Part shown: piece by piece, positions 3,797 to 12,133 of the stretch
How the letters are laid out: each line of letters opens with the position of its first letter
Position numbering within the stretch: position 1 is the stretch's first letter
Source: a virus
Taxonomy: Duplodnaviria; Heunggongvirae; Uroviricota; Caudoviricetes
Direction: 5' to 3' (one strand)
DNA length: 29,026 nt
IMG/VR virus record: IMGVR_UViG_2671180727_000014
Coordinates: 1-29,026 of that record
Translations under genes and position numbers: made by a program
The notes under the pieces: generated by a model
The model's input: only the letters and a program-made list of their open reading frames with translations
Told to the model about the DNA's origin: nothing
The model's database searches: none

Positions 3797-5032
3797 TTAA
3801 CCAAATATTTTTTGAACAACTTCACGAGCCGCTTGTGCAGAAGCTGAAGGGAGTTTGTTAATGAAAGAACGCTCAATACCTGTCACAAAGTCGCCTCGCA
3901 TCATTCCAATCTTGGCCGACAACAAAAGTTCACGAGGGCCAATTGGCTGACTGATAAGGTGTTCTTCGTATCCATCGCGAACGATACCGGCAAACTTAAC
4001 CATCTTTTCTGCGTATTCATCCACGATACCGGCATTTATCAACATGTTGATCTCTGCCTCTTTGCTCATGTATTTCACATTCGAAACGATGCCAAAACGT
4101 GAAAAGTTCGCGGCGTTCTGGATGTTTGTACCCTGGTACAAGCCGGTTTCATCACCAGAACCGTTTGTGTTGCCAGTGCCAATGAAAGCAAACCGTTCAT
4201 GCGGAGTAATGCGACGCCATTCTGGAGTTGCCTCTTTGATGACCAACGCCTCACCTTCCAGCACTGGCTGATACACGCCAAGAATTTGTGGAAACGCAAA
4301 GTCGTATTCATCCGCGAGGTAAACCCAGCCATGCTTCATTGCGAGCGCAAGCAAGCCAGGCTCGAAATACGTAGAGCCATCACGCGCCAGAATTTGCCCC
4401 GTAACATGTGCCTCTTCCATTGATGCTGTATGTTGGGCACGGATCAACGGACGATTGAGCAAAGCACATAGCTGTGTAGGCAATGACGATTTGCCTGTTC
4501 CTGCATGACCCCACAAATAGCCAGGTATGCCAAGTTCAAGCATCATGAAAATATCTTTGATCAGTTCGAAGTCGCCATATACGTAGCCCTTCTTCACTTC
4601 TGGAACGAACTCTGGATACGGCGTATTGACGTTGACGCTAACCATGAGCGGCGTCCCACGTTTTGTTCCGAGTTCTTCCACCGTTACGTTTAGCAGTTCG
4701 TGAGCTGCGACCAGATCTGTCTTGTACTCAACTGTGCCTGTGTAGCCTGGGCTACTGGTCAAGCCAGAAGATTTCGCCATTTCGCTTTTTTGCTCGGCAC
4801 GTTTAGCTTGAATTGCATCAAGTGCCTTTTTCGATAGCGTTGGTTCATCTGGAAACTGCGTTGTGTACATTTTCAGTACGGTGTCAGGATCGGCATCTTT
4901 TACTGACTCAGGAATGCCCTCGCAATTACCATTGGCTACATGGGACTTAAAATAGTGAAATGATTTGCCGCACCACTTGCAAACAAGGTAATCAGAAGGA
5001 TTTTTATCATTTTGCAGTGCAGTAGTAGTCAT
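3797..5032 (-). CDS. AAA+ ATPase of the MoxR/CobS-like class, 411 aa
   Basis: Walker A GHAGTGKSS and Walker B-like VYLADEYD; N-terminal Cys cluster (CKWCGKSFHYF...GNC); sits immediately downstream of a vWA protein on the same strand. Confidence 0.8.
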   Translation of the reverse strand: MTTTALQNDKNPSDYLVCKWCGKSFHYFKSHVANGNCEGIPESVKDADPDTVLKMYTTQFPDEPTLSKKALDAIQAKRAEQKSEMAKSSGLTSSPGYTGTVEYKTDLVAAHELLNVTVEELGTKRGTPLMVSVNVNTPYPEFVPEVKKGYVYGDFELIKDIFMMLELGIPGYLWGHAGTGKSSLPTQLCALLNRPLIRAQHTASMEEAHVTGQILARDGSTYFEPGLLALAMKHGWVYLADEYDFAFPQILGVYQPVLEGEALVIKEATPEWRRITPHERFAFIGTGNTNGSGDETGLYQGTNIQNAANFSRFGIVSNVKYMSKEAEINMLINAGIVDEYAEKMVKFAGIVRDGYEEHLISQPIGPRELLLSAKIGMMRGDFVTGIERSFINKLPSASAQAAREVVQKIFG

Positions 5033-5093
5033 GCGCTTTTCCTTTGTTCTCTAATGAGCGTTCAAGTTCTTATATAAATATACCATTAACTAT

Positions 5094-5111
5094 GGTAAGT
5101 AGTTACTTATC
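5094..5111. promoter_or_regulatory. palindrome-family site GGTAAGTAGTTACTTATC upstream of the AAA+ ATPase gene
   Basis: TAAGTA-GT-TACTTA inverted repeat, about 60 nt upstream of the ATG at 5032. Confidence 0.35.
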
Positions 5112-5127
5112 ATTAAGGCTGTTTTAA

Positions 5128-7236
5128 TTACTTCAAAATGATACGAGATAGTTCAGTAACTACAGATGAACCAAGACTATCAACACTAGTTACCAGGGCA
5201 TGATTTGCGTAAAATCTCTCCGGTGCATCAGTCATGATGCCAATTGCCATCAAATCAATGTCAGTCTGCGTTTCAATTTGCTTCGTAACCGAACGCAAAT
5301 GGGCGTCAAAACCTCTCCCAACAGCCCACGGCGCGCCATCGCTCAGAACAAGCATGATCTTCCTGTCCTCCAAGCGACCGGAAAATAACGATGCAAGGCT
5401 GGCTATGCTTTCACCATCCACGTTATTAAGAAGTGGGAATGTGTAGCCTACGCACCCCATACGTGAGCGAACTTCGCGAGAATTTGCTTTTTCATTCCAA
5501 TTTTTGATGATAGGTAGCATTAAAGATTCAAAGCGAGAGAACTCATATTTGATAGCCTTAAGTTCTCCTGCTGCCATATGACTGCCAAATGTAGTGAAGC
5601 CGGTGATAATGTTGGGAACATTTATTCGATCAAGTGCATCGGCGATGGTATATGCACTTGCAAGAGCTAGTTTTATCGTTTCGCCACTCATTGAACCCGA
5701 TAAATCAATCACTTGTTGAACACAGGCGTTAACGGCTTTAGATTCTTCTTTTTTACGAAACACGCGATCATCATTCATTGTTAATCTGTAGATACTTGAA
5801 CCATGAATGCGCCCCCGACGCTGGCCAGGTATAAACTGAACTCTGTTTCTGCTTGCTATTGCACGTTCCAGGTCTTTTGCCAGCGTCGACGAAACACCTG
5901 ACGAAAGGTGCTTTTCAATATATTTGTCGAAGAGTTGGTTGCCTTCAGGAACGATGCGATAACGGCTGATTGGATATCCACCTAAATCAATATCGGAGAA
6001 TGTTTTAATAAGCCGTTTGATATGGGCTTCTGCCTGATCAATCGAGCCGATGAAGTCGTATGAGCGATTGTATGGCCTGTATTCGCTTTTCGAGCTTTCT
6101 GTTAACTCGCTTTTAATCGTTTCGGATAGCGCATCTTCTGTCATGCCTCCGACTTCATCTTCCATGCTATCCAACTCCTCTAAAGCCTCTTCCAGACTCA
6201 TTTTTGACGGAGTTGGAATGTCTGAAGAGCCGTCTTCTGTCGTTTTTCTTTTTTCGTGGTCAGCGGTTAATGATTCTGACGCCGCGTTATCAGAAGCATC
6301 AGAATCTGATACCGCTTTATCATTTTCTGTATCATCGAATATTGTTTCTGATGATTCAGGATTATCTGAATCATCACTGTCGTTATTATCATGTTTGTGC
6401 TTACTATGTGACTCTGATTTAATAGATTTGTGATTATCTAACGATGAGGGTGTCTCATGATCTTCGTTGTCTTCATTGTTTTCTCCAGAGGCATCCGTCT
6501 GGTCAGCGTCTGAAGGATCGGAAGTTTTTCCCGGAGCTGACTCCTTACCTTTGCTTTCACTTTCAGTGTCTTTGAGGATCTTAGCTATGGTCGCAGCCAC
6601 CTTTACACAATCCTCGGTGCAAGACATGTTACGCACGGCCACATCGATACCATGTTCTTTTAATAATGAAATTGGTTTCTCAATGACAGGCCAATATTCA
6701 TCCATGAAATCTACGAACGGTGCTTGGCCATCCCAGGCTCTTACAACCGGACAGAGAAAGAAGTTTAGAAAAAGCGCGCGCTGATCTTTGCCACAATAAG
6801 CAATAGCCTCTGAAGCCTTTGGTTTAAAGACTTTTTCGATTATAAGGCGCTGAGTTGCCATCAGATTACGTCTTGTTCCGTTAAAGACCTGACCCATTTT
6901 TCGCTCGATGAACACGTCTTCTAAGGCATTCCATAGCGACCAGGAAGGAACGCGTCCTTTTTCTCTCATTTTGTTGGACACACGAATATCGGTAAACAAA
7001 ATGTGAGCAACCTCATGATCGAGAAATCCGCGCACAGCATTCATCAATGCCGGTGTTGCGTTATCCGGGATTGATGGGATGTTTACGAGAATTGGCTCTC
7101 CATCATCGTTATAGCGTACATAAGCGTCGTCCCCTCGTTCTGCAACAGGGATGTTTTTACCTGAAAGGAGAGCGACTACTCGTTTTACACTGTCACGGAA
7201 GTCCTGAACCTCTTTGATGGAACGTTTTTTAGACAT
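5128..7236 (-). CDS. von Willebrand factor A (vWA) domain protein, CobT-like partner of the AAA+ ATPase, 702 aa
   Basis: C-terminal vWA/MIDAS motif VIDLSGSMSG (DxSxS); central ~130 aa acidic Ser/Asp/Glu-rich low-complexity linker (DSDDSDNPESSETIFDDTEND...). Confidence 0.8.
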   Translation of the reverse strand: MSKKRSIKEVQDFRDSVKRVVALLSGKNIPVAERGDDAYVRYNDDGEPILVNIPSIPDNATPALMNAVRGFLDHEVAHILFTDIRVSNKMREKGRVPSWSLWNALEDVFIERKMGQVFNGTRRNLMATQRLIIEKVFKPKASEAIAYCGKDQRALFLNFFLCPVVRAWDGQAPFVDFMDEYWPVIEKPISLLKEHGIDVAVRNMSCTEDCVKVAATIAKILKDTESESKGKESAPGKTSDPSDADQTDASGENNEDNEDHETPSSLDNHKSIKSESHSKHKHDNNDSDDSDNPESSETIFDDTENDKAVSDSDASDNAASESLTADHEKRKTTEDGSSDIPTPSKMSLEEALEELDSMEDEVGGMTEDALSETIKSELTESSKSEYRPYNRSYDFIGSIDQAEAHIKRLIKTFSDIDLGGYPISRYRIVPEGNQLFDKYIEKHLSSGVSSTLAKDLERAIASRNRVQFIPGQRRGRIHGSSIYRLTMNDDRVFRKKEESKAVNACVQQVIDLSGSMSGETIKLALASAYTIADALDRINVPNIITGFTTFGSHMAAGELKAIKYEFSRFESLMLPIIKNWNEKANSREVRSRMGCVGYTFPLLNNVDGESIASLASLFSGRLEDRKIMLVLSDGAPWAVGRGFDAHLRSVTKQIETQTDIDLMAIGIMTDAPERFYANHALVTSVDSLGSSVVTELSRIILK

Positions 7237-7334
7237 GGCTAATCCTTTGTTATGAAAACAAATTATTTACTAGTGTGTTTAATGTAGCACTGCGCGAACA
7301 GGGAACTAAGTCATTCGCGCAGGGAGAAGAGGGG

Positions 7335-7547
7335 TTAACAGATTCTGACGGCTAAAGACCCGGAGCCGGTATTGAGAAGCGTGAAGCGTTTGTTGTTAAG
7401 TTCGAATATAAAGCCAGTTGTGTCATTCACACCAACCTGAATCTGCTCATTCGGTAGATCGGTGAGGATGTCAGCTACACACTCATCAGCTAATTTCTGT
7501 ACGTGTCCGATCTCAAGAGCGATTAGGCTGGAAATAGTGGTGTTCAT
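7335..7547 (-). CDS. hypothetical protein (70 aa)
   Basis: ORF only; position between the vWA gene and the divergent regulatory region. Confidence 0.3.
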   Translation of the reverse strand: MNTTISSLIALEIGHVQKLADECVADILTDLPNEQIQVGVNDTTGFIFELNNKRFTLLNTGSGSLAVRIC

Positions 7548-7724
7548 TCAATCAATCCATTCTAACTTATACTATGGTAAGGAATACTACTAAAATTTGT
7601 ATCAATACTGAATACATTCATATCATATGCAAGTTGATTTTCTTACCTATTTTGGGCTAATTTTTCTCCGTGCAATGGCCTTTAACCGGTCTTTTAAGTG
7701 CCTATCGAAAAAAATGATAATAGC

Positions 7725-7767
7725 TTTACAACCCTAACCTTTGATGTAATATCGGTAAGCACTTACC
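7725..7767 (+). promoter_or_regulatory. sigma70-like promoter (TTTACA-16nt-TAATAT) with a perfect palindromic operator GGTAAGCACTTACC just downstream of the -10
   Basis: TTTACA at 7725-7730, TAATAT at 7747-7752, palindrome GGTAAG-CA-CTTACC at 7754-7767, about 30 nt before the ATG of the HTH gene at 7799. Confidence 0.5.
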
Positions 7768-7798
7768 AGAGAGAATTGAACGCGCAAAGGTTGTAACC

Positions 7799-8185
7799 AT
7801 GTCTGATAACAAGATTGAATTTATAGAAAGTCGCTACGCTGCTTTTATCGCAGGGTTGATTGAATCCTCACCTATGAGTCAGGCCCAAATAGCCAGACTT
7901 ATTGGTTACAAAAATGCCAACAACCTTTCTTTAATTAAAAGTGGCAAAATTCCTTTGCCTATCGATAAGGTTCGTCCGTTGGCGCTGGCGCTGGGTATTG
8001 AGCCAAGTCGTCTTATGATGATGGTGCTGGAAGAACGCCAACCTGAACTCGCAGCATTTTTATACAAAGAAGGCACCGCTCCTCTTAACGAGGACGAAAA
8101 ACAGGTTCTTGCTGCATATAACGAGCGATTCGGTAAAGAGAAAGGCGCATCACAAAAGGTTGTTGAGGCCATAAAGTCTCTATGA
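7799..8185 (+). CDS. helix-turn-helix (XRE/Cro-CI-like) transcriptional regulator, 128 aa
   Basis: HTH-like segment SQAQIARLIGYKNANNLSLIKSGKIP; divergent from and convergent-overlapping with the recombinase gene; palindromic operator in its own promoter. Confidence 0.6.
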   Translation: MSDNKIEFIESRYAAFIAGLIESSPMSQAQIARLIGYKNANNLSLIKSGKIPLPIDKVRPLALALGIEPSRLMMMVLEERQPELAAFLYKEGTAPLNEDEKQVLAAYNERFGKEKGASQKVVEAIKSL

Positions 8186-9283: not shown

Positions 9284-9381
9284 ATGACAATCACCGAGTT
9301 ACGCCGATGCACTGTATAAGTAAACAGTATATTAGGCATAGATTCTTATAGGATCAAGAGTAAAAGTAACTCATTTTCAGC

Positions 9382-9414
9382 AATGATTCCATACATAGTA
9401 GGTATGGAATCATT
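9382..9414. repeat. lox/dif-like site: perfect 13-bp inverted repeats flanking a 7-bp asymmetric spacer (AATGATTCCATAC-ATAGTAG-GTATGGAATCATT)
   Basis: Read directly from the sequence; lies about 100 bp upstream of the tyrosine recombinase start codon (9283). Confidence 0.55.
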
Positions 9415-9493
9415 TAGACGTTGTTTTTTGAATTTTAAGGGAAACAGGAGTGAGTTTGGTGGGAATAAAAACGGCTCTTGTGAGCCGTTTAAA

Positions 9494-9739
9494 TCAGAGG
9501 GTGCTGACGTATGCAGCCAGTTCTGTGTATCCGCCAATCGGTTGGCCATTGATCAGTACCTGGGGGATAGTCTCTACCGGTTTACCAACAATTTCACTAA
9601 GTTTTTCCTTGTCGATACCGGCAGTGGTGATGTCGATGTACTCATAATCACCGTAGCCATGTCCCTTTAGTTGCTTCGCCAGCTCGACCGCACGTTTGCA
9701 GTATGAACAGTTATCTCGTCCGTAGATAACGACTTTCAT
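9494..9739 (-). CDS. glutaredoxin-like redoxin (NrdH/Grx-type), about 81 aa
   Basis: Thioredoxin-fold signature with CxxC active site: KVVIYGRDNCSYCKRAVEL. ORF track starts at a GTG at 9742; the adjacent ATG at 9739 is the likelier start. Confidence 0.85.
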   Translation of the reverse strand: MKVVIYGRDNCSYCKRAVELAKQLKGHGYGDYEYIDITTAGIDKEKLSEIVGKPVETIPQVLINGQPIGGYTELAAYVSTL

Positions 9740-9864
9740 CACTTCACCTCGTGCAACTGCTGTTCATTAACGATGATTGTGCCAATTTCGCAGTAGTGGA
9801 TACATGGTTTTGACTTCAGTGCCTGATGAGCTGCGCGACGCGCCTGTTTACGTTTGTTTCCCAT
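9739..9864 (-). CDS. small basic protein (41 aa, MGNKRKQARRAAHQALKSKPCIHYCEIGTIIVNEQQLHEVK), translationally coupled to the glutaredoxin gene
   Basis: Hand-translated from the minus strand; its TGA stop overlaps the glutaredoxin ATG (ATGA overlap); AAGGA about 8 nt upstream of its ATG. Below the ORF-track size cutoff. Confidence 0.3.
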   Translation of the reverse strand: MGNKRKQARRAAHQALKSKPCIHYCEIGTIIVNEQQLHEVK

Positions 9865-9912
9865 ATTGAGTCCTTTTAAGTGAATAATGAAAGAACTATA
9901 CCGACAAATAAT

Positions 9913-9928
9913 AGGTAAGTCATTACCT
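9913..9928. promoter_or_regulatory. palindromic site AGGTAAGT-CATTACCT upstream of the small ORF/glutaredoxin operon
   Basis: Inverted repeat AGGTAA/TTACCT; member of the dispersed GGTAAG/CTTACC palindrome family. Confidence 0.4.
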
Positions 9929-9943
9929 ATTATTTGTGCATTA

Positions 9944-9964
9944 TCCCTCTACATAGTAGAGGGA
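9944..9964. other. perfect hairpin (9-bp stem TCCCTCTAC/GTAGAGGGA, 3-nt loop) just downstream of the HNH gene stop
   Basis: Read directly; no clear U-tract on either strand, so terminator function is uncertain. Confidence 0.4.
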
Positions 9965-9976
9965 TATCGTCATGAC

Positions 9977-10789
9977 TCACGGCAGTTTTGCTCTAATTTC
10001 GAGTAATTTCTGTGCCGTTATGCTGATTTCATACGCCAGATCTTGTGTTTGGTTAATGATTCCGTAATAGCGCTCAACCTGATCAGGATAAAAACGTCTG
10101 ATATGGGGGATATCGATATAATCATAATACCCAAGCCCTCCAGCAGAATGTTCTCTGAACAGCGCCCAAAAGTTGTTCACTTTCCCGACCAACTCCATAC
10201 GGATTGTTTCTAAAACAACATCATTGAAGCTGTAAAAGGGGTTATGGGCAATATTATCAAATGCGTAGAGAGGGTCGGTAATGTCGGTGCTAACTTTTGC
10301 CCGGAACTGTTCGCTCTTCAGCATTTGGAGGTAGTTGTAATTAAAAATATCAGTAATGGCTTTTAAAACACCGACGTCTCTTTCTGAGTAATTGTTCTGA
10401 CTCACCTGGTGCGTCATCTGTAGCAGAAGAGATTGTTGAGTTTCGGCCAGCTGCTTCCAGTTTTTCAATTGCTCAACGGAATAGATAGTGTAGTCAGAGT
10501 CAATGAGTGCGCCATGTGAACGACACATCCATATACCGTTATCAATCGAGCTTCGCTGTTCTGGGGTTAAGCTAGGATCATATCTCGGTCCACCTGGCGC
10601 TGCTGCTGTAATATGTGCCGCAATACCATTATTAATCCTGCTGTTTGTATCACTGCTATCTGGACCTACAGTTGTCTGGTTGCAGCCAGGATAAGAGCAC
10701 TTCCAGCCTACGCGTTCGGCTAGTGTTCGCTTCACCGATGGGGAAAAATCATCTCTGTTACTCACATTTAACCTCGCAGTGTTAAACAA
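9977..10789 (-). CDS. HNH-nuclease-domain protein with a C-terminal domain of unknown function, 270 aa
   Basis: N-terminal HNH-like motif: GWKCSYPGCNQ ... AAHITAAAPGGPRYD ... DNGIWMCRSHGALID. The C-terminal ~170 aa has no motif I recognise. Confidence 0.65.
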   Translation of the reverse strand: MFNTARLNVSNRDDFSPSVKRTLAERVGWKCSYPGCNQTTVGPDSSDTNSRINNGIAAHITAAAPGGPRYDPSLTPEQRSSIDNGIWMCRSHGALIDSDYTIYSVEQLKNWKQLAETQQSLLLQMTHQVSQNNYSERDVGVLKAITDIFNYNYLQMLKSEQFRAKVSTDITDPLYAFDNIAHNPFYSFNDVVLETIRMELVGKVNNFWALFREHSAGGLGYYDYIDIPHIRRFYPDQVERYYGIINQTQDLAYEISITAQKLLEIRAKLP

Positions 10790-10796
10790 TCTATGG

Positions 10797-11351
10797 CTAT
10801 TTGCGTTTGTCTTCTTTCAAGCGTGAAACTTTAATCATCTTATCGGTGATAGAAAGCAATGTTACACCCTCTTTTTCGTTCACAAAGCCTGCACCGTTAA
10901 TCACCATTACTAAACGATCCTTCCCTCGATAGACTTCATAATACTTGCCTGCACCACAGGTCTTTGTCTCAATACAGTCCATACCTGAGATAGCTTCTTG
11001 GTCGAAAATTCTGTCTTTCGTTGCTACCGGTTTTCCGTACTCCCTTGTCATCATTTCACCGATCTGCATGAACGTATACTTACCGACATTTGTCGTTAAA
11101 GACGATTCAACCTTTCCATCAATGAGATTTCCATGCGTATGTGGTTCCTGTTCATTCGGTGCATTTTTATCTTGAAGAGCGAATACCTCAATACTGGGTG
11201 TTTGCTCTTGGAACTGGGCTTTATAGTTCTGTGCAAGATCGCTTTTATCTCTACCTATTAAGGTAATTTTGTCGATCTCCGATTCGTTACATCCCGTCAG
11301 AGCGAGCATGATTACCAGAGAGGCAAGAATATTGAGGTTGCGCTTATTCAT
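10797..11351 (-). CDS. lipoprotein (signal peptide with lipobox LTGC), about 184 aa
   Basis: MNKRNLNILASLVIMLALTGCNE; GGAG about 8 nt upstream of the ATG at 11351 (ORF track starts at an upstream GTG at 11378); 8-nt gap to the HNH gene on the same strand. Confidence 0.65.
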   Translation of the reverse strand: MNKRNLNILASLVIMLALTGCNESEIDKITLIGRDKSDLAQNYKAQFQEQTPSIEVFALQDKNAPNEQEPHTHGNLIDGKVESSLTTNVGKYTFMQIGEMMTREYGKPVATKDRIFDQEAISGMDCIETKTCGAGKYYEVYRGKDRLVMVINGAGFVNEKEGVTLLSITDKMIKVSRLKEDKRK

Positions 11352-11478
11352 TGGCTTATCTCCATGTTTTTCTGCCACATCCTGTCACCCACATGCAGGC
11401 AGTCTAATGCTGCCGTTGCTAAATGAAGACCCAAAAGTGGTAAAACCATACCTGGAAATATTCTGGAGTCAACCCAGT

Positions 11479-11503
11479 AAAAAAGGGGCCGAAGCCCCTT
11501 TGA
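11479..11503 (-). terminator. intrinsic terminator downstream of the tRNA cluster (minus strand)
   Basis: Minus-strand reading gives AAAGGGGC-UUCG-GCCCCUUU followed by a U-tract (plus strand: aaaaaaggggccgaagcccctttgaatttt). Confidence 0.7.
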
Positions 11504-11655: not shown

Positions 11656-11742
11656 TGGCGGAGAGTAATGGAATCGAACCATCATCGCTTGCGCAATGGG
11701 ACGGTTTTCAAGACCGCTTGAGCACCATGCTCCCTACTCTCC
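11656..11742 (-). tRNA. tRNA-Ser (anticodon UGA), long variable arm, CCA encoded
   Basis: Reverse complement GGAGAGT...GCGGT-CTTGAAA-ACCGT...GATGG-TTCGATT-CCATT-ACTCTCC-G-CCA: 7-bp acceptor stem, anticodon loop CU-UGA-AA, T-loop TTCGATT. The D-arm is not fully resolved by hand. Confidence 0.7.
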
Positions 11743-11966
11743 GGCCGTTGTGGTGGCCGGTACTGAATCTCCGGCATACGGTGCAGCCAATTAGGACTAC
11801 GGACGATCACCGCTCGCGAAAGGGAAGATTTGCGGCCGCATTTCCCTAACATCCAAGAAAGCTATCGCATCAGTCTGCGAATCCACCACAACGGTAAGAT
11901 CACTACCTTTCGACCAGTCATTGTGCACATGAACGACGATTAACCGTAATGATCTTATCGTTGTAT

Positions 11967-12046: not shown

Positions 12047-12133
12047 TGGTGGGGAGTGATGGAGTCGAACCACCCGAGTCGCAATGACAGTAGATTTACA
12101 GTCTACCCCGCTGCCCCTACGGACTAACTCCCC
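12047..12133 (-). tRNA. tRNA-Tyr (anticodon GUA), long variable arm, CCA encoded
   Basis: Reverse complement GGGGAGT...GTAGA-CTGTAAA-TCTAC...GGTGG-TTCGACT-CCATC-ACTCCCC-A-CCA. Confidence 0.8.

Follow-up and report, generated by a model that had tools for sequence, protein, structure and literature searches.

The DNA analysed here is a 29,026-nt stretch of a Caudoviricetes virus record (IMGVR_UViG_2671180727_000014, positions 1 to 29,026), which is referred to as the window hereafter. On its minus strand, between 9977 and 10765, lies a gene for a protein that joins an N-terminal HNH nuclease domain to a C-terminal helical domain. Our leading explanation, in which belief and doubt are about evenly balanced, is that the product of this gene is a nuclease for defence or exclusion that works on its own as a single polypeptide, and that the gene is dispensable cargo of an SSU5/pHCM2-like phage-plasmid. 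In the mechanism that we infer, the N-terminal domain, which resembles the HNH domains of the antiphage effectors Cap5 and SPARHA, would be a toxic effector that cuts DNA, and the C-terminal helical bundle would hold it inactive (autoinhibition) and sense a cue from an invading phage or another mobile element (the trigger). Sensing would license self-association of the HNH domain, as in Cap5 and SPARHA; DNA cleavage would follow, and the invader would be blocked (the antiphage phenotype), possibly at the cost of the cell. A lipoprotein gene lies directly upstream (10797–11351, minus strand), and a previous sequence-only reading had regarded the two genes as one candidate immunity or exclusion system. 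The two genes are separable, as described below, and the best reading of the lipoprotein gene from the comparative data is that it is a separate accessory gene, sharing with the HNH gene a promoter region and a variable locus, not a function.

The HNH gene and its nuclease domain

The open reading frame (ORF) of the HNH gene extends to a TTG at 10789, and with this start the product would have 270 aa and the gap to the lipoprotein gene would be 8 nt, as the sequence-only reading had stated. However, the GTG at 10765, which gives 262 aa and a 32-nt gap, is the most likely start, because a GAGG Shine-Dalgarno sequence is located 6 nt upstream of it, the RefSeq annotation starts the gene there, and the N-termini of all the homologues agree with it: 38 of 38 begin 2–4 residues ahead of an invariant RDDF. 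The coordinates and the same-strand arrangement of the two ORFs in the earlier description were confirmed; the strand, which it had not stated, is the minus strand. Both ORFs are judged to be real genes from two lines of evidence. One is that the ratio of nonsynonymous to synonymous substitution rates (dN/dS) relative to their relatives is about 0.2 for each, which points to purifying selection. The other is that each of the two products matches one PHROG family of unknown function from end to end (E values of 4e-181 and 6e-114).

The HNH (His-Me finger) domain corresponds to 10403–10765 (minus strand; residues ~1–121, including a long linker helix at residues 97–121). It was barely detected by Pfam (HNH_2, E 0.21). 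The best PADLOC match was PDC-M68A (8e-25), and the others were models of a CBASS (cyclic oligonucleotide-based antiphage signalling system) endonuclease, a SAVED-HNH effector, and Shedu SduA; these matches span residues ~5–138 of the 270-aa ORF. The closest solved sequence is 9om4 (E 1e-10, residues 8–105 of the 262-aa protein), followed by the Cap5 entries 7rwk, 8ysq, and 7rwm. The entry 9om4 comes from the short-Argonaute system SPARHA, in which it is the HNH-APAZ effector (PMC12738770). The beta-beta-alpha-metal fold of the present domain is superposable on the HNH domain of Cap5.

The characteristic motifs of the protein are C-x4-C (CSYPGC), AAH-I, and N-G-I-W-M-C-x2-H; the AHI, N, and W-M-C-x2-H elements had been noticed correctly at first sight, but the first cysteine pair had been taken for C-x2-C. 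In the family alignment of 39 sequences, C23, C28, H51, N76, C81, H84, and D89 are invariant. For PsCap5, it has been reported that H56 is the general base, that H91 and D95 are ligands of the catalytic Mg2+, and that E53 and D92 bridge the active tetramer (PMC12141522). Among these residues, H56 corresponds to H51 in the present protein (the histidine of AAH-I, found in 39 of 39 sequences) and D95 corresponds to the invariant D89, while H91 is replaced by G85, E53 by I48, and D92 by A86. The zinc site is present (C23, C28, C81, and H84); its last position, which precedes the Mg-ligand histidine site (the +3 position), alternates between His and Cys in the subclade, as expected of a zinc ligand. 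An R-D-x-F motif at the N-terminus (R4-D5-x-F7, ~10745–10756) is also invariant in the family. This motif is missing from the aligned Cap5 and SPARHA sequences and is found in ORF2 of P2-EC46 (see below), and it might supply a ligand in place of the lost Mg-ligand histidine. Taken at the sequence level, the domain is a Cap5-like HNH domain with an atypical metal site, for which nuclease activity is predicted.

The comparison with known systems showed likenesses that are confined to parts of the protein. With CBASS Cap5 (HNH-SAVED; PDB 7rwk, 7rwm, 8FMF, and 9DIF), it shares the N-terminal helix, the CCCH zinc site, the general-base histidine, and the aspartate Mg ligand, as well as the general logic of a nuclease effector under a C-terminal control domain. 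However, besides the three substitutions mentioned above, it has no SAVED domain, its C-terminal domain being an unrelated helical bundle; furthermore, no CD-NTase cyclase is annotated in the homologous plasmid region, so that the locus does not qualify as CBASS. The HNH-APAZ protein of SPARHA, although it is the closest solved sequence, differs in the presence of APAZ (the match to 9om4 stops at residue ~105) and of a prokaryotic Argonaute (pAgo) neighbour, and its catalytic histidine (H80 in AcaSPARHA) aligns with Gly85. The immediate neighbours of the present gene are the lipoprotein gene and a phoH remnant, and thus it cannot be assigned to SPARHA either. The SPARHA HNH domain is activated by oligomerisation through its N-terminal helix (PMC12738770). 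Protein A of PDC-M68 has a model length (253) similar to that of the HNH protein; however, PDC-M68 is a multi-gene candidate system, only profile positions 4–125 (the HNH half) are covered by the match, and no partner was detected here. Finally, ORF2 of the Z region of P2-EC46, annotated as a "putative lysogenic conversion protein", and its relatives of 350–370 aa (phrog_34329) belong to the same HNH subclade. ORF2 has the N-terminal RDDFS and a small residue at the position of the Mg-ligand histidine, is 40% identical over 165 aa, and is likewise carried by a temperate element, in a moron hotspot; its C-terminal region is longer and unlike that of the present protein. In the literature, nothing was found on PDC-M68 or P2-EC46, and the paper on P2 hotspots (Rousset 2022) does not mention HNH.

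The C-terminal domain and the contexts of its carriers

The C-terminal domain (9980–10393, minus strand; residues ~125–262), which is uncharacterised and is proposed here to be a sensor or regulator module, was predicted with high confidence to be a helical bundle. The predicted local distance difference test (pLDDT) score is mostly above 90, and the model consists of four long helices and a tiny two-stranded sheet; the structure prediction that the sequence-only reading had recommended thus gave a confident fold, with no specific match. Its profile gave no significant match among the PDB sequences and nothing in Pfam or NCBIfam. An Abi_C-like family had been suggested as a target of the profile search, but when 19 C-terminal domains were compared with Pfam at E ≤ 5, only scattered noise and no Abi_C was found. 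A single weak match to CTD9 (ABC-3C; E 0.02) occurred in one distant relative. The C-terminal half also showed no SAVED match, and no similarity to known modified-DNA readers in the Pfam and fold searches.

A profile built from the 19 domains was used to search 1.84 billion representative proteins, and the domain was found in 137 proteins at E ≤ 1e-3 (33 at E ≤ 1e-10), none of which exceeds 486 aa. Its N-terminal partners are diverse. The commonest is a set of 1–3 transmembrane helices, in proteins of ~165–250 aa; the others are an HNH_3-type nuclease (the P0140 group), a classical PF01844 HNH (the P0150 group), Mrr_cat nucleases (P0153 and P0237), TIR_2 (P0208 and P0238), DUF4062 (P0200), and a protein kinase (P0249). 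Alignment to the profile showed that the fusion classes have motifs in common: D..L, then [ED]xFG, and then NP.[FY].F.D..LE.L[RK]. The PADLOC models that match these fusions (ThsB-like and PDC-S66 for TIR, PDC-S60, the PD-T4-6 kinase, and PDC-M58A for Mrr) cover their N-terminal effector halves only. The contigs of the distant relatives fused to transmembrane helices or TIR were too short to inform on gene context.

Defence proteins are usually built in this way, with one partner domain kept constant and the toxic or effector domains exchanged beside it. As bare membrane helices, TIR, and kinases have no need to find DNA, a role as sensor or regulator is more likely for the constant domain than one as DNA reader. 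Nor is it likely to act as an adaptor that links the effector to a second component, since no long NTPase carries it and no conserved neighbour exists. Adaptors of the EAD/CTD or ABC-3C kind were considered and rejected for these reasons: all 137 carriers have at most 486 aa, and no large STAND or ABC NTPase is among them. Two neighbourhoods that might have suggested such an adaptor were also dismissed: the AAA_21 ATPase near the Shewanella homologue is paired with its own small HNH-like protein, and the genes upstream of the Burkholderia homologue encode an integrase and an excisionase-like helix-turn-helix (HTH) protein. We therefore propose, tentatively and with somewhat more doubt than belief, that the C-terminal helical domain defines an undescribed family of single-gene defence proteins, in which one sensor/regulator module would control interchangeable killers (three HNH types, an Mrr-like nuclease, TIR, DUF4062, a kinase, and membrane helices). 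In such a family, the phage-plasmid copy, which is also present in pHCM2 of Salmonella Typhi, would use an HNH variant without the canonical Mg-ligand histidine. In the fused toxin-antitoxin CapRel(SJ46), a toxic effector at the N-terminus is combined in one polypeptide with a regulatory domain at the C-terminus, by which a phage product is sensed. The likeness to the present protein is an analogy of single-gene architecture, with no relationship in sequence or fold. Such single-gene systems are common on phage-plasmids, and CapRel has been reported on P1-like elements (bioRxiv 10.1101/2025.09.12.675607).

The distribution of the HNH family is in accord with mobile cargo. Full-length homologues (40–59% identity) were found in Klebsiella, Yersinia, Xenorhabdus, Shewanella, Vibrio, Photobacterium, Pseudomonas, Burkholderia, Massilia, Dyella, and Firmicutes. 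Those of Klebsiella, Burkholderia anthina, and Massilia stand directly beside tyrosine integrases, with a large deaminase-domain protein nearby in Massilia. The Yersinia homologue is in an integrase/AlpA island that adjoins a type I restriction-modification system, and the Shewanella homologue lies between a type II restriction-modification pair and the AAA_21 ATPase with its small HNH-like protein, a pair that we read as Septu-like. In Vibrio parahaemolyticus, the homologue adjoins an Mrr-like cassette within an array of small cassettes that resembles a chromosomal integron; in Pseudomonas aeruginosa, it is carried by an integrative and conjugative element (ICE), directly after an Xre-type regulator gene; and in Firmicutes, it is beside a MobA relaxase. 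ORF2 of P2-EC46, of the same subclade with a different C-terminus, occupies the Z region, a lysogenic-conversion locus of P2-like phages. Such contexts are usually those of defence genes. The first-sight impression that a nuclease joined to an unassigned domain resembles a defence or exclusion module thus gained substance from the Cap5/SPARHA/Shedu-type HNH domain, the relatives in defence islands, and the swapping of the C-terminal domain among effectors. Two local arrangements were also observed: in Shewanella sp. HN-41, a 349-aa ORF without a Pfam match starts 5 nt after the HNH stop codon (6836–7885 of the examined stretch), and in the P. aeruginosa ICE, the Xre-type HTH gene (4702–4998 of the examined stretch) ends 3 nt before the HNH start. 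These two may be local regulators or partners of the respective homologues.

Within the phage-plasmid backbone, HNH alleles of 97, 87, 81, and 53% identity and a clean deletion were found, and the gene is missing from most SSU5-like elements and from the sequenced SSU5-like phages. This indicates that the gene is dispensable and exchanged there, and disagrees with strict conservation as a core gene. In a survey of phage-plasmids with DefenseFinder 1.3.0, no defence system was found in pHCM2-like elements (bioRxiv 10.1101/2025.09.12.675607). Since pHCM2 carries the gene at 87% identity, current catalogues evidently do not recognise it.

Two other roles for a single nuclease gene have to be weighed against these data. 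It seems unlikely to us that the nuclease serves the life cycle or the competition of the phage-plasmid itself, either by degrading the DNA of the host or of rival plasmids or by a type IV-like, modification-dependent restriction. The gene does lie within a block of nucleic-acid metabolism (DNA ligase, tRNAs, phoH, and glutaredoxin), architectures with HNH and a reader domain are typical of type IV enzymes (PMC12738770, discussion), and the HNH of one distant C-domain fusion matches the mREase_IV models of PADLOC. Nevertheless, the same C-terminal domain is present on TIR, a kinase, DUF4062, and bare transmembrane helices, for which DNA targeting is not needed; it has no similarity to known modified-DNA readers; and the sparse presence of the gene in SSU5-like elements and phages argues against a life-cycle function. 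Similarly, we think it improbable that the protein is an addiction module, in which a toxin fused to its regulator would maintain the phage-plasmid or island through post-segregational killing and would not act against phages. The combination of a toxic domain and a regulator in a single gene, the occurrence of homologues on plasmids, ICEs, an integron-like cassette array, and integrase islands, and the YafO toxin modules that fill a neighbouring variable slot in relatives are compatible with such a module. However, post-segregational killing would be hard to achieve with a single stable polypeptide that has no labile antidote, the gene is readily deleted, and the Xre-type regulator is found upstream of the P. 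aeruginosa copy and of no other.

Separate histories of the HNH and lipoprotein genes

The lipoprotein gene (10797–11351, minus strand; ATG at 11351, preceded by GGAG) encodes a 184-aa precursor. The signal peptide is MNKRNLNILASLVIMLALTGC, and the lipobox stands in the context MNKRNLNILASLVIMLA-LTG-C21. In an alignment of 14 homologues, conservation reaches at least 90% at each of L18, T19, G20, and C21, as well as at Cys126 and Cys132, and LTGC agrees with the lipobox pattern [LVI][ASTVI][GAS]C. The LTGC lipobox of the sequence-only reading was therefore borne out, and the protein is predicted from its signal peptide and lipobox to be a bacterial lipoprotein, a substrate of Lgt and LspA; the Pfam match to LPAM_1 is weak (E 0.07). 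According to the +2 rule of E. coli, Asn at this position predicts sorting to the outer membrane. The residue at +2 is Asn here, and the mature protein is probably exported and located in the outer membrane. Beyond LPAM_1, nothing was found in Pfam, NCBIfam, or the PDB sequences; there was no PADLOC match; and no homologue of known function was found in the Pfam, PHROG, PDB, and homologue searches. The structure model is of low confidence (pLDDT 51). The family is confined to enterobacterial elements, where its alleles form two classes, with ≥ 88% and 61–80% identity to the window copy. The phage lipoproteins Llp of T5 and Cor of phi80 and N15 mediate superinfection exclusion. They offer a lead for the present protein, which is likewise a small, predicted exported lipoprotein encoded by an accessory gene of a temperate element. 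As expected at the outset, neither the lipoprotein nor the HNH gene is structural or replicative.

It is very unlikely, in our judgement, that the lipoprotein and the HNH protein are the two components of one system for exclusion or immunity, in which, for example, a sensor or blocker in the envelope would work with a nuclease in the cytoplasm. Such a system would agree with the common strand, the 32-nt gap, the one promoter-like site upstream, and the presence of the lipoprotein gene just upstream in 6 of the 6 SSU5-like elements examined that have the HNH gene. However, four kinds of evidence led us to give up the earlier proposal that the pair is one system: the distribution, the lipoprotein-only loci, the HNH-only loci, and the discordant histories. 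A tblastn search detected the lipoprotein on 108 plasmids and the HNH protein, at full length, on 76. In the phage collection, the lipoprotein was found in no record, and the HNH protein in none except for distant HNH-only matches. The lipoprotein occurs without the HNH protein on the P1-like IncY plasmid NZ_CP010146.1 (3501–4055 of the examined stretch; 68% identity, beside a Ref-family gene), and this gene therefore moves between unrelated families of phage-plasmids. On the SSU5-like p20170902CC-1 (NZ_AP025215.1), the lipoprotein gene is followed by an unrelated hypothetical gene of 431 aa on the opposite strand (4307–5602 of the examined stretch). This 431-aa gene is preceded by a GC-rich terminator-like hairpin and is possibly an alternative cargo of the locus. 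On a C. freundii plasmid, phoH is the next gene after that of the lipoprotein, and the 22 nt behind the lipoprotein stop codon represent the 3' end of the HNH gene, which indicates a clean deletion of the latter.

Conversely, the HNH family occurs without the lipoprotein at 15 loci outside the SSU5-like elements, where it has no conserved neighbour. When the ORFs lying up to 3.5 kb from 18 HNH loci were all compared with one another, the only shared neighbours were those of the three SSU5-like elements and those of a Firmicutes element represented by three copies. The two genes also differ in divergence. Relative to an E. asburiae plasmid, the HNH protein is 97% identical, with a synonymous divergence (dS) of 0.05, whereas the adjacent lipoprotein is 69% identical, with a saturated proportion of synonymous differences (pS) of 0.79; other relatives combine an HNH allele of 53% identity with a lipoprotein of 67–68% identity. 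From these values, a recombination breakpoint is placed between the two genes. Moreover, the products would reside in different cell compartments, and an exported lipoprotein cannot serve as a cytoplasmic immunity factor. A colicin-like operon (an HNH DNase with a lysis lipoprotein) was also considered and rejected: translocation and receptor domains are absent, as is an immunity gene, and the lipoprotein, with 184 aa, lies upstream and is inherited independently.

The sequence-only reading had also mentioned a homing endonuclease with a passenger gene. The HNH fold and the sporadic presence among relatives would suit this idea, which is nevertheless largely refuted and, to us, extremely unlikely. 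No gene or intron is interrupted, and the empty site of the C. freundii plasmid is a deletion scar, not an intact target. NUMOD, AP2, or other DNA-binding modules were absent from the Pfam scans, and the matches to structures of phage homing HNH proteins were weak (E 0.04–0.06), with no homing-fold match below E 0.04. A Foldseek comparison with viral structures (BFVD) gave no match at E ≤ 0.001, and the homologues are island or cassette cargo in unrelated contexts.

Several observations weigh against the interpretation as a defence nuclease. The position of the Mg-ligand histidine (PsCap5 H91, AcaSPARHA H80) is Gly or Ala in all 116 sequences of the subclade, and the acidic bridge residues (PsCap5 E53 and D92, MllaSPARHA E50) are replaced by Ile48 and Ala86; Gly85 and the loss of these acids make both the nuclease activity and a Cap5-like route of activation uncertain. 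As the structural neighbours of the C-terminal domain are only generic helical bundles, it is the domain architecture that argues for a sensor role, and the distant fusions often match at E 1e-4 to 1e-6 over the first ~80 residues only. The association with defence islands was judged on ~18 loci and is not a statistical enrichment, and the constant position of the lipoprotein gene in the six SSU5-like elements should also be counted here, as the HNH gene may depend on it to some extent, for example on its promoter. The changes at the metal site raise the question of whether the HNH fold is catalytically dead, the protein being a DNA-binding or scaffolding factor. We regard this as quite unlikely, however, because His51, Asn76, Asp89, and the zinc site are invariant in 39 diverse members and the invariant R4-D5-x-F7 might supply a ligand. 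In addition, other active His-Me nucleases, such as the HNH domain of Cas9, use Asp or Asn ligands.

If the defence reading is correct, the C-terminal domain would be a new sensor/regulator domain of bacterial immune modules, distributed from Enterobacteria to Firmicutes with at least seven effector types, and a conserved "hypothetical" gene of the clinically common SSU5/pHCM2-type phage-plasmids would obtain a likely role. The natural effector swaps and the atypical HNH site would then provide experimental handles on the off/on control. If it is wrong, the locus would contain two unrelated accessory genes in a deletion-prone region. In our view, experiments would be most worthwhile on the modular C-terminal domain.

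The surrounding locus

The matches of the window region are ~110-kb non-mobilisable plasmids of E. coli, Shigella, Salmonella, Enterobacter, and Citrobacter, with identity up to 100%, and part of the region is shared with the Escherichia phages Cyrano and CMS-2020a and with Klebsiella SSU5-like phages. The annotated neighbours (DNA polymerase III alpha, a CobT-like protein, an integrase, glutaredoxin, a transfer RNA (tRNA) array, and DNA ligase) fit a piece of an SSU5/pHCM2-type phage-plasmid, as which the window is classified from its sequence. All genes discussed here (lipoprotein, HNH, phoH remnant, and glutaredoxin) are on the minus strand, and the two studied genes lie, as first described, between the terminator of the tRNA array and the glutaredoxin gene (9494–9742; Pfam 3.8e-11).

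The terminator-like element after the tRNA array is a GC-rich hairpin, GGGGC-N4-GCCCC with T6 (11479–11498, minus strand). It was read directly and was missed by the hairpin scan; flanking A/T runs probably lengthen its stem. A sigma-70 promoter-like site, TTGACT-16-TATGGT (11445–11472, minus strand), is located upstream of the lipoprotein gene. It matches the consensus only, and since two promoter-like sites were seen in the region against 4.7 expected by chance, the evidence is weak. This site is the sole candidate promoter for the lipoprotein and HNH genes, the gap between them being too short to hold one. Co-transcription of the two genes from it is thus plausible as a prediction, and the HNH gene may borrow its transcription from the promoter ahead of the lipoprotein gene.

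Two tandem hairpins with 11-bp and 15-bp stems (9905–9967, minus strand) directly follow the HNH stop codon. The segment between this stop codon and the phoH remnant (9866–9980) folds with z = −6.7, and 0 of 200 shuffled sequences fold as well. The hairpin sequence is kept in pHCM2, in the Enterobacter and Citrobacter relatives, and in a relative without the HNH gene. A promoter-like site for the downstream phoH remnant and glutaredoxin gene (9895–9923) overlaps the hairpins, which are a candidate terminator, processing site, or operator.

The fullest order of the locus, found in pHCM2, Enterobacter, and Citrobacter, is tRNAs, lipoprotein, HNH, phoH, a small ORF, a Gp49-family gene, and glutaredoxin. 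Comparison of the SSU5-like elements suggests that the variants arise largely through deletion. Phage Cyrano is without the lipoprotein, HNH, and phoH genes, and the window has lost ~1.26 kb, from phoH through the small ORF to gp49, all of which are in pHCM2. A 41-aa ORF (9739–9864, minus strand), which overlaps the start of the glutaredoxin gene, joins the first 33 codons of phoH to the last 7 codons of gp49. This fused ORF has its own PHROG (phrog_27585), and thus the deletion allele is common.

A second variable slot lies beside the studied one: between glutaredoxin and integrase, three relatives have a YafO-family toxin gene with a hypothetical gene, or other small genes, and the equivalent in the window is only ~210 nt (9284–9493). 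The tRNA array of the window (tRNA-Ser, Thr, Tyr, and Asn) also differs from that of phage Cyrano, in which tRNA-Ser and tRNA-Thr are 8 nt apart and tRNA-Tyr is absent. In the window, these two are parted by a 224-nt spacer (11743–11966), for which Rfam gave no match at E ≤ 0.1, and there is an extra tRNA-Tyr (12047–12133). The tRNA-Ser(TGA) at 11656–11742 scored 46.6 bits against the Rfam tRNA-Sec model, whose gathering score is 47, and this is probably an effect of its long variable arm.

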